64,000 nucleotides of DNA from an uncultured Chloroflexia bacterium. GTDB taxonomy: Bacteria; Chloroflexota; Anaerolineae; CG2-30-64-16. The notes below the pieces were generated by a model that saw only the letters and a list, made by a program, of their open reading frames with translations, searched no databases and was not told the DNA's origin. The DNA is taken from contig CAWEMM010000008.1 in NCBI GenBank assembly GCA_963810095.1, positions 113,474 to 177,473 of the forward strand, read 5' to 3'. This document shows, piece by piece, positions 3,815-24,952 of the stretch (positions within the stretch are counted from its first letter, which is position 1; every line of letters begins with the position of its first letter). A program made the position numbers and the translations under genes.

Positions 3815-3843
3815 TTGACCCGCGCTAGTCGTAGTGCTATGAT
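3815..3843 (+). promoter_or_regulatory. sigma70-type promoter with extended -10
   Basis: TTGACC-17-TATGAT preceded by TGc. Confidence 0.6.
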
Positions 3844-3879
3844 TTGCACAGGCGTAGGCTAACGCTGAAAGGAGATGGC

Positions 3880-4098
3880 ATGATGAAACGTCTTCAGAAA
3901 GCGATGCGGCCGGGCTACATTGAGGACACGCTGCAGGCGTGGGAGGACATGCGGGCCGAGGTCCTGCATGAGATCCAGGATGGCGGGCCGGTGCGGGAAG
4001 AACGGGTCGAGGCGGCCAGCGATATCGCGGCACATGTATTCCCGTGGGTGCTCGCCGAGCCGCAATCCGCTCGTCCAAGTCATGCTCACCGAAGGTAG
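3880..4098 (+). CDS. small hypothetical protein (72 aa)
   Basis: RBS AAAGGAG at 3868-3874 and a promoter immediately upstream; no recognisable motif. Confidence 0.5.
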   Translation: MMKRLQKAMRPGYIEDTLQAWEDMRAEVLHEIQDGGPVREERVEAASDIAAHVFPWVLAEPQSARPSHAHRR

Positions 4099-4151
4099 CT
4101 AGATCAAGCACGGGGGCCAGTGCAGGTCTGACCAGGCGCACAACCGTATAA

Positions 4152-4209
4152 GGGGATGAGGCTCCCCGGGGTTATAGACCCAGAACGTCGCAAGACTGAT
4201 AGCCTCTAC
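4152..4209 (+). ncRNA. fluoride riboswitch (crcB motif) #1
   Basis: GGGGATGAGGCTCCCC … GTCGCAAGAC TGATAGCCTCTAC; P1, pseudoknot GAGGC/GCCTC; upstream of eno…fluC. Confidence 0.93.
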
Positions 4210-4248
4210 CAGCGGTGCTGTCTTCTGACTGGTAGAGGCTATTTCTTT
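4199..4248 (+). terminator. riboswitch expression-platform intrinsic terminator
   Basis: TAGCCTCTACCAG / CTGGTAGAGGCTA then TTTCTTT; left arm overlaps the aptamer 3' end. Confidence 0.85.
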
Positions 4249-4276
4249 GTCTCACATCACACCCAGGAGGTATCAC

Positions 4277-5560
4277 GTGTCTGTTGCAATCACTGACGTC
4301 AAGGCTCGGGAAATCCTCGACTCGCGCGGCAATCCGACGGTCGAGGTCGATGTGTGGCTGGAGGACGGCAGCTTCGGCCGCGCCGGCGTGCCCTCGGGCG
4401 CGTCGACCGGCGTGCACGAGGCGCTGGAACTGCGCGACGGCGACAAGGCGCGCTTCGGCGGCAAGGGCGTCCGGCACGCAGTGGCGAACGTCAACGAGCA
4501 GATCGCGCCCGCACTGGTCGATATGGACGCGCTCGATCAGACGGCCGTCGACGAGGCGATGCTAGCCCTCGATGGCACGCCAAACAAGAGCAAGCTCGGG
4601 GCCAACGCGATCCTGGGCGTGAGCCTGGCGGTGGCGCGAGCGGCGGCGGACTCGCTGGGCGTCCCGCTGTACCGCTACCTTGGCGGCGTCGGCGCACGCC
4701 TCCTGCCCGTGCCCATGATGAACATCATGAACGGCGGCGCACACGCAAACTGGCAGGGCACGGATCTCCAGGAGTTTATGATCGCACCGGTCGGCGCGCC
4801 CACGTTCAGCGAGGCGGTGCGCTGGGGCTCGGAGACCTACCAGGCGCTCAAGGGCGTGCTCAAGAGCAAGGGCTACCCGACCGGCGTGGGCGATGAAGGC
4901 GGGTTTGCGCCCACACTGAAGACGAATGCGGAGGCGGTGGAGCTGATCCTCAGCGCGATCGAAAAGGCCGGCTACCGGCCGGGCGACGACATCTGCCTGG
5001 CGCTGGACCCGGCGTCGAGCGGCTTCTACGAAGACGGGGTCTACAACCTGCGCACGGAAGGCCGCAAGATCAGCTCAGCCGAGATGGTCGCGATGTATGA
5101 CGAGTGGACGCGCAAGTATCCGATCGTCGTGCTGGAAGACGGCTTGGCCGAGGACGACTGGGACGGCTGGAAGCTGTTGAACAAGACCATCGGCGACCGG
5201 GTCGAGCTGGTGGGCGACGACCTGTTCGTGACCAACGTCGAGCGTATCGCGCAGGGCATGCGGGAGAACGCGGCGAATGCGGTCTTGATCAAGCTGAATC
5301 AGATCGGCAGCCTGACCGAGACGATTGCGGCGATCCAAATGGCGCACAAGGCCGGCTGGGGCGCCATGGTGTCGCATCGCAGCGGCGAGACGGTCGATAG
5401 CTTCATCGCTGACCTTACGGTGGCCATGGGCACCGGGCACCTGAAGACCGGCGCGCCGTGCCGGTCGGAGCGGGTTGAGAAGTATAACCAGCTCATGCGT
5501 ATCGAGGAAGATCTCGACGAGGGCGCCCGGTATGCCGGGCGCAAGGCCTTTGTGCGGTAG
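4277..5560 (+). CDS. eno: enolase
   Basis: [40 protein letters not shown] 4277 after AGGAGG. Confidence 0.97.
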
Positions 5561-6187
5561 GTGCCCATGACGCGCTTCGTCCTGGTTCGGCACGGTCAGA
5601 CGGAGTGGAACCGGGTCGAACGGTTCCGCGGACGGGCCGATGTGCCGTTGAACGACGCCGGGCTGGCGCAGGCGGAGGCGACCGGGCGGCGGGTGGCCGA
5701 GGAATGGCAGCCCGCCGCCGTGTACGCCAGTCCGCTTAGCCGGGCATACGTGACGGCGGAAGCGATTAGCGTACGCTGCGGCCTGCCGGTGGCGCCGTTG
5801 GCCGGCGTGATCGATATCGATTACGGGGAGTGGCAGGGACTGACGCCCGAGGAGGTCGCCGCCCGCTGGCCAGACCTGCTGCACGCCTGGTATACCGCGC
5901 CGCAGACGGTGCAGGTCCCCGGCGGTGAGTCGCTGGCGGGACTGCGCGAGCGGGCCATGCGGTCTCTTTGTGAGCTGGTGGACCGGCACCGTGACGAGAC
6001 AGTCGCGGTCGTGAGCCACACGGTGGTCAACCGGGTGATCCTGTTGGGCATCCTCGGGCTGGGCAATGAACGGTTTTGGCGGCTGCGGCAGGACAACTGC
6101 GCAATCAATGTGTTCGACGCGGACGCCAGCGATTTCACGCTGGTGACACTAAACGATACCAGCCATCTGCGCTGCGCTGAGAAATGA
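5561..6187 (+). CDS. histidine phosphatase / phosphoglycerate mutase family (GpmB/CobC-like)
   Basis: LVRHGQT.WN…RFRG, SPLSRA, GES, VVSH. Confidence 0.9.
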   Translation: MPMTRFVLVRHGQTEWNRVERFRGRADVPLNDAGLAQAEATGRRVAEEWQPAAVYASPLSRAYVTAEAISVRCGLPVAPLAGVIDIDYGEWQGLTPEEVAARWPDLLHAWYTAPQTVQVPGGESLAGLRERAMRSLCELVDRHRDETVAVVSHTVVNRVILLGILGLGNERFWRLRQDNCAINVFDADASDFTLVTLNDTSHLRCAEK

Positions 6188-6209
6188 GCCGCCGCGCACC
6201 TGGAACGAG

Positions 6210-6761
6210 GTGACCGTGAATAACTTATGGCTTGAGCTGCGCATGGGGCCGAAAGCGCCTGATATCGTATATGCCATCGTCGAGTCGCCCAAGGGCCAGC
6301 GGAACAAGACGGAGTATAACATCAACAGTGGTGCGCTCGTGTTGAGCCGCACGCTCGCCTCGTCGCTGCACTACCCGGGCGACTATGGGCTCATCCCGCA
6401 GACCTTCTTCGAAGATGGTGAGCCCATGGACATCCTGACCATGACCGGCGAGCCGACTTTCCCCGGCTGCGTCATCCAGGCGCGCCCCGTGGGCATTCTG
6501 CGACTGATGGACGCCGGCCATCACGACGACAAGGTGCTGGCGGTGGCTGCCACGGACCCACTCTTCGCCGAGTACCAGGCGCTGAAGGACATCCCCCCTC
6601 ACTTCCTGCGCGAGGTGCAGCACTTCTTCGAGACGTACAAAGACCTGGAGGGCGGCAAGCGCGCGCAGGCGATGGGGTGGGAGGACGCGGCGGCGGCCAA
6701 GGAGGCCATCCTGCGCGCCCACCAGGTGTTCTTGGAGCGTTTCAGTCTGAAGGGCCTGTAG
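6210..6761 (+). CDS. ppa: family I inorganic pyrophosphatase (variant active site)
   Basis: YPGDYGLIPQT, DGEPMD, D…DDK, FFETYKDLE. Confidence 0.92.
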   Translation: MTVNNLWLELRMGPKAPDIVYAIVESPKGQRNKTEYNINSGALVLSRTLASSLHYPGDYGLIPQTFFEDGEPMDILTMTGEPTFPGCVIQARPVGILRLMDAGHHDDKVLAVAATDPLFAEYQALKDIPPHFLREVQHFFETYKDLEGGKRAQAMGWEDAAAAKEAILRAHQVFLERFSLKGL

Positions 6762-23606: not shown

Positions 23607-23662
23607 GCCAAACGGCCTCCTTCTTTAATTCTGCCAGTCTCCTGCGGCTGGCCACATAGGGC

Positions 23663-23699
23663 AAACAAAAAGCCTCTACGGAACCGGTCCCGTAGAGGC
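23663..23699 (-). terminator. riboswitch intrinsic terminator
   Basis: Minus strand GCCTCTACGG…CCGTAGAGGC then TTTTTGTTT. Confidence 0.85.
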
Positions 23700-23740
23700 C
23701 ATCAGTCGGCAGTCCGACGGTTGACAGCGAGCCTCATCGC
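23692..23740 (-). ncRNA. fluoride riboswitch #3
   Basis: Reverse complement GCGATGAGGCTCGC tgtcAACC GTCGG actg CCGAC TGATGGCCTCTAC, the compact canonical form. Confidence 0.92.
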
Positions 23741-23764
23741 ATGGCGACTGCGTCGCCGAGCAAC

Positions 23765-23815
23765 ATTCTATGCTTGCGATAGGTCGTTGTCAACTGCGCG
23801 CCGATCTGGTATAAT
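23765..23815. promoter_or_regulatory. divergent sigma70 promoters with overlapping -35 boxes
   Basis: Minus: TTGACA(23793-88)-17-TAGAAT(23770-65); plus: TTGTCA(23787-92)-17-TATAAT(23810-15) with TG extension. Confidence 0.8.
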
Positions 23816-23831
23816 GGGACTAATCGAATAA

Positions 23832-23891
23832 GGGATGAGGCTCCCGGCCGGCGCATCGCGCACGGCCTGTCGCAGGACTGATAGCCTCTAC
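23832..23891 (+). ncRNA. fluoride riboswitch #4
   Basis: GGGATGAGGCTCCC … GTCGCAGGAC TGATAGCCTCTAC. Confidence 0.9.
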
Positions 23892-23923
23892 CGGCGCGTT
23901 GCCGCGTTGGTAGAGGCTTTTTT
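23883..23923 (+). terminator. riboswitch intrinsic terminator
   Basis: AGCCTCTACCGGCGCG / CGCGTTGGTAGAGGCT followed by a T tract. Confidence 0.85.
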
Positions 23924-23943
23924 GTTACGGTGTGGAGGTCAGT

Positions 23944-24952
23944 ATGACGGCCCTGGATCGATTCGCAGATGAAGTAAAAGACATGGCGAGTCTCGCAGAA
24001 CCCGTGCAAATCGCCATCGAAAAGGAGTTATTGCCCGGGGAGGTCGTGCGCCGGATCATCTACGCGCCGCCTCATGAGGGGGCGGCCCGCAGGCGCAGGG
24101 TGGGCGGGTGGCTTTCCTGGCGACCTTCCCCGGCGTGGGTCCTGGTGTTGAGTGACACCCGGCTGCTGCTAGCGACGATCGAAGCGGACGAGCCTGTCCC
24201 GACGGTAAGCGCGGCCCCCGTGGCCGACATGCTTCGGATCGAGCTCGGCGAGATCCTCTTATACGCCTGGTTGGAATGGTCGTGGGCCGCTGACGGCGAG
24301 CTACGACAGGAGCGGGTCTATTTCAACTCGGTGCGCGCAGATCTGTTCTCGAAGGTGGTGGAAACGGTTCGCGCGGATATCGTCGCGCAATCTGGTCTGC
24401 CGCTGGCGGGCCAGGAGCGCGACCTGGCCTCGTTCAAGAGTCTACCATTCAAGTTCGCGAACATCATTCCGCACTTTCTGCTCTTCCGCGGCGAGTATGC
24501 AGAAAGCGTCGTCTTTCAGCCGGCGATCTGGGGGCGGCACCTGGGCCTTCTGCCCGTACAAGCGCGCGCCAGTAACCGTTGCTGTCTTGACGCCTCACTA
24601 CCTGCTGTTCGTACAAGATGATCTGTCTCACCAGAAGGCAGCCTACGGAGTGATCGCCAGCTACTGTCCTCGCAATCGGGTGACAGCTCTCGAGCTCGAT
24701 CGCAAGGAGAACGACGTAGTGCTGAATGCGACGCTTCGGTGGCAAGAGGCCGAAGAGAAGCTGAGCTACCTCTTTGAAGCAGAGGCAGAGCCGAGGCTGC
24801 GGGCGTTGATTGCCACGCTGGAGGGATCGACGAGCGTGGTGAAGATGGCTGGTCCCGATGCGGGCGAGGAATCGAGCAACGGCAGAGCGGAGACGAACGC
24901 CGGGGAAGATGGCGCCGAGATCGAACGAAGAGGCCTTGGGAGGCCGCAATAG
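23944..24952 (+). CDS. hypothetical soluble protein (~335 aa); frameshift near 24565
   Basis: RBS GGAGG; ORFs 23932-24621 and 24497-24952 join into one coherent product. Confidence 0.7.

Follow-up and report, generated by a model that had tools for sequence, protein, structure and literature searches.

Does a locus in which the same RNA-like element precedes several sets of genes form a single fluoride-inducible regulon, and what would such a regulon provide to the cell? Fluoride riboswitches and the Fluc/CLC-F exporters are well studied; the cellular response beyond export is poorly understood. To our knowledge, no function has yet been assigned to the mutS-like genes that were reported next to crcB RNAs in 2010. 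The question is raised here by a stretch of 64,000 nucleotides (nt), called the window below, from contig CAWEMM010000008.1 of an uncultured Anaerolineae bacterium. The region of interest lies between positions 3815 and 24952 of this window. It very probably constitutes a fluoride-inducible regulon of an Anaerolineae genome, governed by four ON riboswitches of the crcB class and interrupted by frame breaks that are artefactual.

Predicted fluoride aptamers and their terminators

The original prediction of a fluoride locus was based on four copies of a short motif, and all of them were recovered. A search of the window located exact matches to the 14-mer core at 4153 (plus strand), 10274 (plus), 23727-23740 (minus) and 23832 (plus). 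A composite pattern, GATGAGGCTC-N15-45-CTGATRGCCTCTAC, in which 15-45 nt separate the 5' core from the 3' core, gave four matches in the window and none in 100 shuffles. At the scale of the 6.13-Mb genome, a structure-aware descriptor demanding both P1 pairing and a pseudoknot complementarity of 5 base pairs (bp) returned six hits, namely the four elements (RS1 to RS4) and two that resemble chance matches. The putative aptamers are the following.

4147-4213, plus strand: RS1, fluoride (crcB-motif) aptamer, whose fold shows an additional 5-bp hairpin separating P1 from P2
10268-10336, plus strand: RS2, fluoride aptamer in which the P1-P2 linker is replaced by an 8-bp extra hairpin
23688-23746, minus strand: RS3, fluoride aptamer of canonical length, without extra hairpin
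23826-23895, plus strand: RS4, fluoride aptamer carrying the extra hairpin

The P1 and P2 helices, the conserved loop and the CUGAU segment are present in the four copies, which all fold as P1, P2 and a strong terminator (z of -3.3, -6.6, -5.2 and -2.7). This organization is shared with the Rfam family RF01734: the same P1 with its GAUG..G.U loop, P2, CUGAU segment, 5-bp pseudoknot and terminator overlap of the ON type are found, together with the same typical genes (crcB, enolase, inorganic pyrophosphatase (PPase) and mutS-like). Weinberg 2010 (PMC2864571) already names mutS among the crcB-motif genes and notes overlapping terminators. The window elements differ from the family by their sub-cut-off scores, by an optional P1-P2 hairpin in three of the four copies, and by their pseudoknot, GAGGC/GCCUC instead of the consensus GGAGU/ACUCC, in which three of the five pairs are altered, each in a compensatory manner. 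The idea that this pseudoknot is lineage-specific was rejected, as records from Bathyarchaeota, Woesearchaeota and Bacillota contain it as well.

A model, R1, was built from the four copies and six others from relatives. It detects copies in 18 of the 37 genomes of the family, including this one (G000), where exactly four are found, and 34 further copies are present in relatives. In the resulting alignment of 38 copies from 27 sources, 91.4% of the cells are paired, against 38-53% with slid partners; since both the model and the alignment were fitted to the assumed structure and the sequences are kin, such pairing figures lean in its favor. P1 is paired at 95.4%, with two of its four pairs changed on both sides, P2 likewise shows two such pairs, and the pseudoknot is paired at 98.4%, with one G-C to A-U change. 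The P1-P2 linker reaches at least 18 nt in 22 of these copies, 19 of which form a hairpin of at least 4 bp there, with differing sequences. The core, the covarying helices and the pairing of the pseudoknot agree with the crcB identity proposed originally. It is concluded that the four elements are probably fluoride riboswitches of a variant architecture that is under-scored by the Rfam model.

Each aptamer leads into a terminator, and those of RS2, RS3 and RS4 were found independently by a terminator scanner. Terminators and promoter-like sites are listed below.

4198-4253, plus strand: RS1 terminator, with GCCUC of the pseudoknot in its 5' arm and a U-rich tail behind the stem
10324-10369, plus strand: RS2 terminator, 15-bp stem and T-tract
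23661-23700, minus strand: RS3 terminator, 13-bp stem and T-tract
23883-23928, plus strand: RS4 terminator, 16-bp stem and T-tract
3815-3843, plus strand: promoter-like TTGACC-17-TATGAT, 10/12 consensus positions, 300 nt upstream of RS1 and uncertain as the promoter of unit 1
10231-10259, plus strand: possible promoter TTGATG-17-TAAGAT, read by eye, under the scanner threshold
23765-23815, both strands: divergent promoter pair with overlapping -35 boxes, 11/12 consensus positions each (minus TTGACA-17-TAGAAT, 23793 to 23765; plus TTGTCA-17-TATAAT, 23787-23815)

In the four copies, the 3' strand of the pseudoknot, GCCUC, is also the bottom of the terminator stem, in its 5' arm. When these five nucleotides are forced to remain unpaired, folding costs 10-13 kcal/mol and the leftover stem is detached from the U-tract. 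The folding and constraint energies are thus in line with the predicted ON layout, in which the left arm of the terminator is the pseudoknot strand. Motif counts, folds and terminator overlap together indicate that neither these sequence features nor the ON layout are spurious. On the basis of this anatomy and of the established behavior of the crcB riboswitch class, GCCUC would build the base of the intrinsic terminator when fluoride is absent, and transcription would stop. When fluoride is present, the pseudoknot would form, the terminator base would be blocked and RNA polymerase would read through. RS3 and RS4 are transcribed divergently from the overlapping promoter-like pair. The weak Rfam look-alikes in this region (sau-19, SR6 antitoxin and similar families) correspond to the terminators.

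The likeness to crcB could be coincidental if the motifs were a lineage-specific repeated terminator, similar to the repetitive extragenic palindromic (REP) type and devoid of sensing. This explanation would account for the terminator arm being near-identical in all four copies and for the weak Rfam hits to terminator-type small RNAs. It is nevertheless extremely improbable, as just four copies are present in 6.13 Mb, all in the 5' leaders of this locus. Moreover, P1 and P2 covary, the pseudoknot complementarity is retained, and the terminator loops and distal stems vary among the copies while the aptamer core is invariant.

Gene content of the four units and frame breaks

Each riboswitch heads a separate unit, as originally predicted for about 16 genes, and a recount based on Pfam, NCBIfam, frame analysis and intact orthologues also gives 16. 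Amino acids (aa) and open reading frames (ORFs) are abbreviated in the list.

Unit 1, behind RS1
4277-5560, plus strand: enolase, switch-linked paralogue (TIGR01060, 654 bits)
5561-6187, plus strand: histidine phosphatase of branch 1, phosphoglycerate-mutase-like (PF00300, 208 bits; NCBIfam scores under the equivalog cut-offs)
6210-6761, plus strand: family I PPase (PF00719, 170.8 bits)
6850-7224, plus strand: CrcB/Fluc fluoride channel (PF02537, 98.9 bits, cut-off 32.9)
7277-8546, plus strand: DUF190 (PII-like) protein with four CBS domains; frame break near 7590, one 431-aa ORF in relative G016
8555-8998, plus strand: 147-aa protein whose family has no name, found repeatedly in fluoride loci
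8991-9671, plus strand: DUF6062 (CxxC protein), two frame breaks
9737-10171, plus strand: single-domain EamA membrane protein (PF00892, 83.7 bits)
Unit 2, behind RS2
10400-11626, plus strand: MFS transporter (PF07690, 131 bits)
11680-13262, plus strand: MutS-like 1 (MutS1), domains III-V; frame break near 12764, stop codon lost through an indel near 13254
13259-14790, plus strand: MutS-like 2 (MutS2), domains III-V (PF00488, structure model, Foldseek)
14798-16486, plus strand: mini P-type ATPase with A, P and N domains and three membrane helices; frame breaks near 15137, 15478, 15993 and 16046
Unit 3, behind RS3
22629-23606, minus strand: MoxR-type AAA+ ATPase (PF07726, 213.7 bits; AAA lid, 81.2 bits)
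21400-22632, minus strand: DUF58 protein (PF01882, 38.1 bits)
19794-21419, minus strand: multi-pass transmembrane protein with a C-terminal DUF4129; frame breaks near 21119 and 20158
Unit 4, behind RS4
23944-24952, plus strand: putative tandem bacterial-PH-domain protein of about 330 aa, the single gene of the unit; frame break near 24553-24560

The regulon had been drawn over the whole span; its four switch-led units hold, and some 3.2 kb have to be subtracted. This stretch, at 16525-19708 on the minus strand between units 2 and 3, carries modCBA and a padR-like gene without any switch upstream and has its own promoter-like site. The proposed export by FluC, perhaps assisted by the MFS and EamA proteins, finds its component in CrcB, which scores above the PF02537 cut-off and has the expected length (about 125 aa) and four helices. 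EamA is not a recurrent member, having no match in 25 related fluoride loci. The DUF190 part gives a weak PII-like Pfam hit, and the DUF190-CBS gene always follows crcB here. No Pfam or NCBIfam hit was obtained for the 147-aa protein, whose Atlas matches are unnamed clusters only.

The gene boundaries given originally were wrong because frame breaks had gone unnoticed. At least 13 are present in the 21-kb span, four of them within the 1.7-kb mini ATPase gene. The ATPase is spread over five frames and the DUF6062 and DUF4129 proteins over three each; the DUF190-CBS, MutS1 and unit-4 genes are each split into two, and modB, modC and padR are broken too. Such a density is what a decaying locus would display, with the mini ATPase, MutS1, DUF6062, DUF4129 and PH proteins pseudogenized. 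Decay is very improbable, as the essential rpoB and rpoC genes of the same genome (G000:C14:146935-155374) contain at least one and at least five frame changes, respectively, and unrelated genes of the window are also split (kdpB, 39414-41655; kdpD, 42498-45172; dcuC, 49389-50883; a DUF2252 gene, 50887-52609). The orthologues of the broken genes are intact in relatives. Marker completeness is low in the few-contig genomes of the genus (75-88%) and reaches 93-99% in many-contig relatives of the family. Finally, short-read contigs from three public runs, with 90-99% identity, show single-base indels relative to the window at break sites or gene junctions (12764, 13254/13256, 14765-14785, 20158, 21119 and 24553). 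The broken rpoB, rpoC and unrelated genes, the low completeness and the short-read indels argue that the frame breaks are presumably sequencing or assembly indels and not gene decay.

It follows that the 942-aa ORF combining MutS_V and E1-E2_ATPase, into which MutS1, MutS2 and the ATPase had been merged, is presumably an artefact. This fusion was rejected: the orthologues are separate, the related contigs carry indels at both junctions, and the removal of one base near 13254 restores the overlapping stop and start codons of MutS1 and MutS2. False fusion proteins can arise in this way in uncorrected long-read assemblies, and the pervasive indels mean that any ORF-level reading of this genome requires frame-aware tools.

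The surroundings of the regulon were also annotated. The ORF at 3212-4141 (minus strand) and small ORFs before RS1 were dropped for want of a family hit; the former overlaps a methyltransferase gene on the opposite strand. Arsenic-type genes flank the fluoride locus at 93-3692 and 25389-25844. Upstream are found a helix-turn-helix-LMWPc fusion, two LMWPc (ArsC-like) genes, an ArsR-family regulator and a double S-adenosylmethionine-dependent methyltransferase (502 aa), and downstream one further LMWPc gene. These neighbors suggest a toxic-ion resistance island. A kdpABC and kdpD/kdpE cluster (37633-45872), encoding a K+ P-type pump unrelated to the mini ATPase, lies 13 kb downstream.

Rfam scores and the identity of the ligand

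Several observations weigh against a regulon of four fluoride riboswitches and have to be considered together. An Rfam scan at the gathering threshold reported nothing in the 64-kb window. This threshold, which the original prediction had named as its own point of refutation, is missed by all four copies, so that the prediction would fall by that criterion: with permissive settings, RF01734 scores are 30.6 bits for RS3, 26.7 for RS1, 9.3 for RS2 and 9.0 for RS4, the last two far under the value of 34, which is a detection cut-off and not a structural feature. The R1 scores (79.6 bits for RS1, 72.2 for RS2, 68.9 for RS4 and 53.7 for RS3) are not independent, all four being training sequences of this model, and the kinship of the relatives inflates the independence of the recurrence counts. 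The promoter of RS1 is doubtful, no better site being seen directly before it, and nine of the 16 genes have no assigned function. The short-read contigs come from related strains and not from the same strain. Among public sequencing runs, no RNA run with the locus was found, the matching ones being DNA runs with shares of 0.06-0.07.

The low Rfam scores can be traced to the compensatory pseudoknot variant and to the extra P1-P2 hairpin of RS1, RS2 and RS4. In a model free of pseudoknots, the three pairs changed on both sides are counted as six mismatches. The threshold test is judged too strict for these variant aptamers, which a standard Rfam annotation overlooks entirely.

An altered pseudoknot and an extra hairpin could also mark a change of specificity, the aptamers then being crcB-like sensors of another ligand in place of fluoride. 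The sub-cut-off scores, the lack of the usual AAC linker in RS2 and RS4, both at about 9 bits, and the many controlled genes without a known fluoride link would fit such a change. The gene context makes it very improbable: CrcB, enolase and PPase sit in the same units, and with the histidine phosphatase they reproduce the set of the tested fluoride operon of Enterobacter cloacae FRM (PMC5533749). The aptamers point in the same direction, as the core nucleotides of RS3, which has the canonical length and scores 30.6 bits, are identical to those of RS1, RS2 and RS4 with their hairpins, and the same pseudoknot variant is found upstream of crcB in relatives. In addition, a Bacillota copy scoring 49.7 bits with Rfam, above the cut-off, precedes the same mini ATPase. 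Fluoride is taken as the probable ligand in what follows.

Enzymes and ATPase modules behind the riboswitches

The genes found behind the riboswitches were compared in 25 related loci from the family and the class. The crcB-DUF190-CBS set, enolase, histidine phosphatase and PPase recur there, as do the MFS-MutS1-MutS2 genes, at times duplicated, and the mini ATPase (G016 and G047). A switch followed by MoxR, DUF58 and the transmembrane/DUF4129 gene is present in three other genomes of the family (G013, G031 and G032), and a switch followed by the unit-4 PH gene in five other genomes (G036, G013, G037, G003 and G039). A sample of 300 further genomes of the class supplied the 29 best MoxR orthologues. 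A same-strand riboswitch precedes 13 of them, within about 150 nt in nine cases and at 0.6-0.9 kb in four, and the divergent switch pair is repeated in one of these loci. The unit-4 family was found in four of 200 other genomes sampled in the phylum, and in one of the four a switch precedes the gene. The ATPase machines of the original prediction (MutS-like pair, mini P-type ATPase, MoxR module) are thus real and recur behind switches in relatives.

In the uncultured Chloroflexi locus L082, MoxR, DUF58, transmembrane/DUF4129, PPase, enolase, mini ATPase, MutS1 and MutS2 genes follow one another in a single direction, uniting modules that form separate units in the window. Fluoride loci resembling those of Anaerolineae are also seen in archaeal metagenome-assembled genome records, L077 (Woesearchaeota), L073 (Bathyarchaeota) and L108 (Asgard). 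The L077 enolase nests within an Anaerolineaceae clade, a placement that points to a horizontal transfer or a binning error.

The genome has a second, housekeeping enolase on contig C2 (G000:C2:16401-17681; 72.6% identity), adjoining a second DUF6062 gene. It also has a second PPase on C11 (68.5% identity) and a second crcB-DUF190 pair on C7 (G000:C7:534750-535532); these additional copies are all without a switch. When 28 enolases are placed in a tree, those linked to switches group on one side of a 99/99 branch; of the 18 rows there, 15 have a descriptor hit and a further one has a model hit, and the remaining enolases lie outside. The two groups are distinguished by six nearly fixed positions. 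Five of them are 1-4 residues from the LEDG, GDD, SHRSGE and KTG motifs, and the sixth (335) precedes K339, in the KLNQIG motif, by four residues; these motifs are metal-ligand or catalytic sites. As judged from the tree, the switch-linked enolase is apparently a separate and old paralogue. The clade and the six substitutions beside motifs favor a specialized isozyme over a mere dosage effect.

The mini P-type ATPase is best described from the intact 562-aa orthologue of G016, which scores 182 bits with TIGR01494 (cut-off 62). At E<=1e-10 the database holds 1971 proteins related to it, and the top 120 measure 425-594 aa. An alignment of 14 diverse members shows no variation in the TGE, DKTG(V), KGD, TGD(R) and GDGxND motifs, which are shared with P2-type ATPases (Listeria LMCA1, SPCA1 and MgtA). 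In contrast to these pumps, the protein, of about 560 aa, starts at the A domain without M1-M2 and stops one helix later on, without M6-M10, and the PEGL sequence of M4 becomes N-x-[ED]-L-F. Its profile aligns to the solved P2-type pumps only from the A domain to M5 (residues 114-673 of 880 in LMCA1 and 126-700 of 893 in SPCA1). With only three hydrophobic helices, it lacks the transport domain of 6-10 helices with M4/M6 ion sites.

It further differs from P2-type ATPases by its link to fluoride switches and to the MutS-like pair. Among 48 mini-ATPase loci in species-representative genomes, a riboswitch is detected in 27 with the strict descriptor, against about 0.2 expected from the genome background, and in 32 when R1 and Rfam are added. 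The switch is at most 250 nt upstream in 11 loci, including Bathyarchaeota, Asgard and two Bacillota records; in other loci, the ATPase comes after a switch-MFS or a switch-MutS1-MutS2 arrangement. Where the ATPase match is clear (43 loci), the MutS pair is present in 20-22 cases, enolase in 20, MFS in 13 and the 147-aa family in 12. A search of the available literature found no paper connecting a P-type ATPase with fluoride riboswitches. The P domain matches the Pfam 'Hydrolase' family, and the mini ATPase may be included in the 'haloacid dehalogenase' class that PMC11139923 cites after Baker 2012.

The MutS-like pair shares domain V with MutS, MutS2 and KamC-type ATPases (PF00488, 69-78 bits, cut-off 30.2) and has weak, sub-threshold hits to the KamC reactivase model. 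It differs from them by the absence of mismatch-binding, connector and Smr domains; no Pfam hit to the mismatch-binding domain I or the connector domain II was obtained. The predicted structure of MutS2 (516 aa, pLDDT 80) superposes on MutS, MSH2 and MSH3 across 510-590 aligned columns (TMq 0.5-0.58), and because of this match to MutS/MSH chains it is considered to cover domains III-V only. The Walker B Asp of MutS helps to hold Mg2+. Here this Asp is replaced by Asn: the paralogues have NEIF and NESF where Taq MutS has D-E, and Asn-Glu is found in 19 of 22 MutS1 and 24 of 25 MutS2 sequences, the remainder giving no match to the regular expression. The solved E. coli MutS D693N mutant is among the structural matches of the MutS2 model. 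Relatives encode MutS1 and MutS2 as separate genes, the stop codon of the first overlapping the start codon of the second, and in some genomes (G016 and G039) the pair forms a tandem duplicate. A literature search on fluoride riboswitches and MutS found no relevant paper.

Unit 3 has the AAA_3, DUF58 and DUF4129 domains of MoxR-DUF58-DUF4129 operons, in which a MoxR AAA+ protein is paired with a vWA-like partner, in their usual gene order. It differs from the usual operons by its position behind a fluoride riboswitch, as in many Anaerolineae. Searches of the available literature found no paper linking MoxR to a fluoride riboswitch, and no relevant paper on fluoride riboswitches with Chloroflexi or DUF190.

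The unit-4 protein, which has no Pfam hit, belongs to a family of 383 representatives at E<=0.001 among 1.84 billion. Its structure is predicted (pLDDT 93) to consist of two PH-like domains, whose halves match bacterial PH structures in VIA-align with Z of 8.4 and 7.3, a range classed as middling. Foldseek matches the model to the tandem-PH proteins BBS5, Rtt106 and Spt16 (probability up to 1.0, TM score about 0.3), and the Atlas search gave bPH clusters. In one Chloroflexota cluster of the Atlas, 72% of the members are annotated as inorganic pyrophosphatase and 12% carry a bPH_3 domain, which may point to a physical association of PPase with domains of the PH type.

A system of this kind is already known. 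E. cloacae FRM has a fluoride-resistance operon, ppaC-uspA-eno-gpmA-crcB-orf5249, behind one riboswitch (PMC5533749), and shares with the window an extra enolase, a pyrophosphatase, a phosphoglycerate-mutase-type enzyme and CrcB. The window differs by its four switches, 16 genes, family I PPase, lack of Usp and phylum, and by the additional ATPase modules and PH protein. What is notable in the present locus is its composition, its size, an architecture that escapes Rfam, and the uncharacterized families tied to the switches.

From the sequences, we infer functions for these genes beyond their shared regulation. CrcB/Fluc would export fluoride, with DUF190-CBS as its likely cytoplasmic partner, and the enolase paralogue, PPase and phosphoglycerate-mutase-like phosphatase would add to or replace fluoride-sensitive Mg enzymes. 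The RS2 unit would supply an MFS transporter, the mini P-type ATPase with its three helices and a MutS-like heterodimer whose genes are coupled in translation, and the RS3 and RS4 units the MoxR-DUF58-DUF4129 module and the tandem-PH protein. The third to fifth components of this proposed supply (MFS/MutS/ATPase, MoxR module and PH protein) would be placed in the regulon by recurrence and not by function.

A second layer of fluoride defense can be envisaged, although it is rather doubtful at this stage. The MutS-like heterodimer, the mini ATPase and the MoxR module would act as ATP-driven machines alongside a fluoride-tolerant enolase isozyme. These machines might release metal-fluoride mimics of the MgFx type from poisoned phosphoryl-transfer enzymes, a 'reactivase' role for which KamC and MoxR-type activases provide the analogy; alternatively, they might power an unconventional route of export together with the MFS protein. 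Such a layer would span Chloroflexota, Bacillota, Bathyarchaeia and Asgard archaea. The locus and its relatives provide in any case a compact list of candidates, comprising truncated P-type ATPases, the MutS-like pair, the MoxR module, the PH protein and the enolase paralogue.

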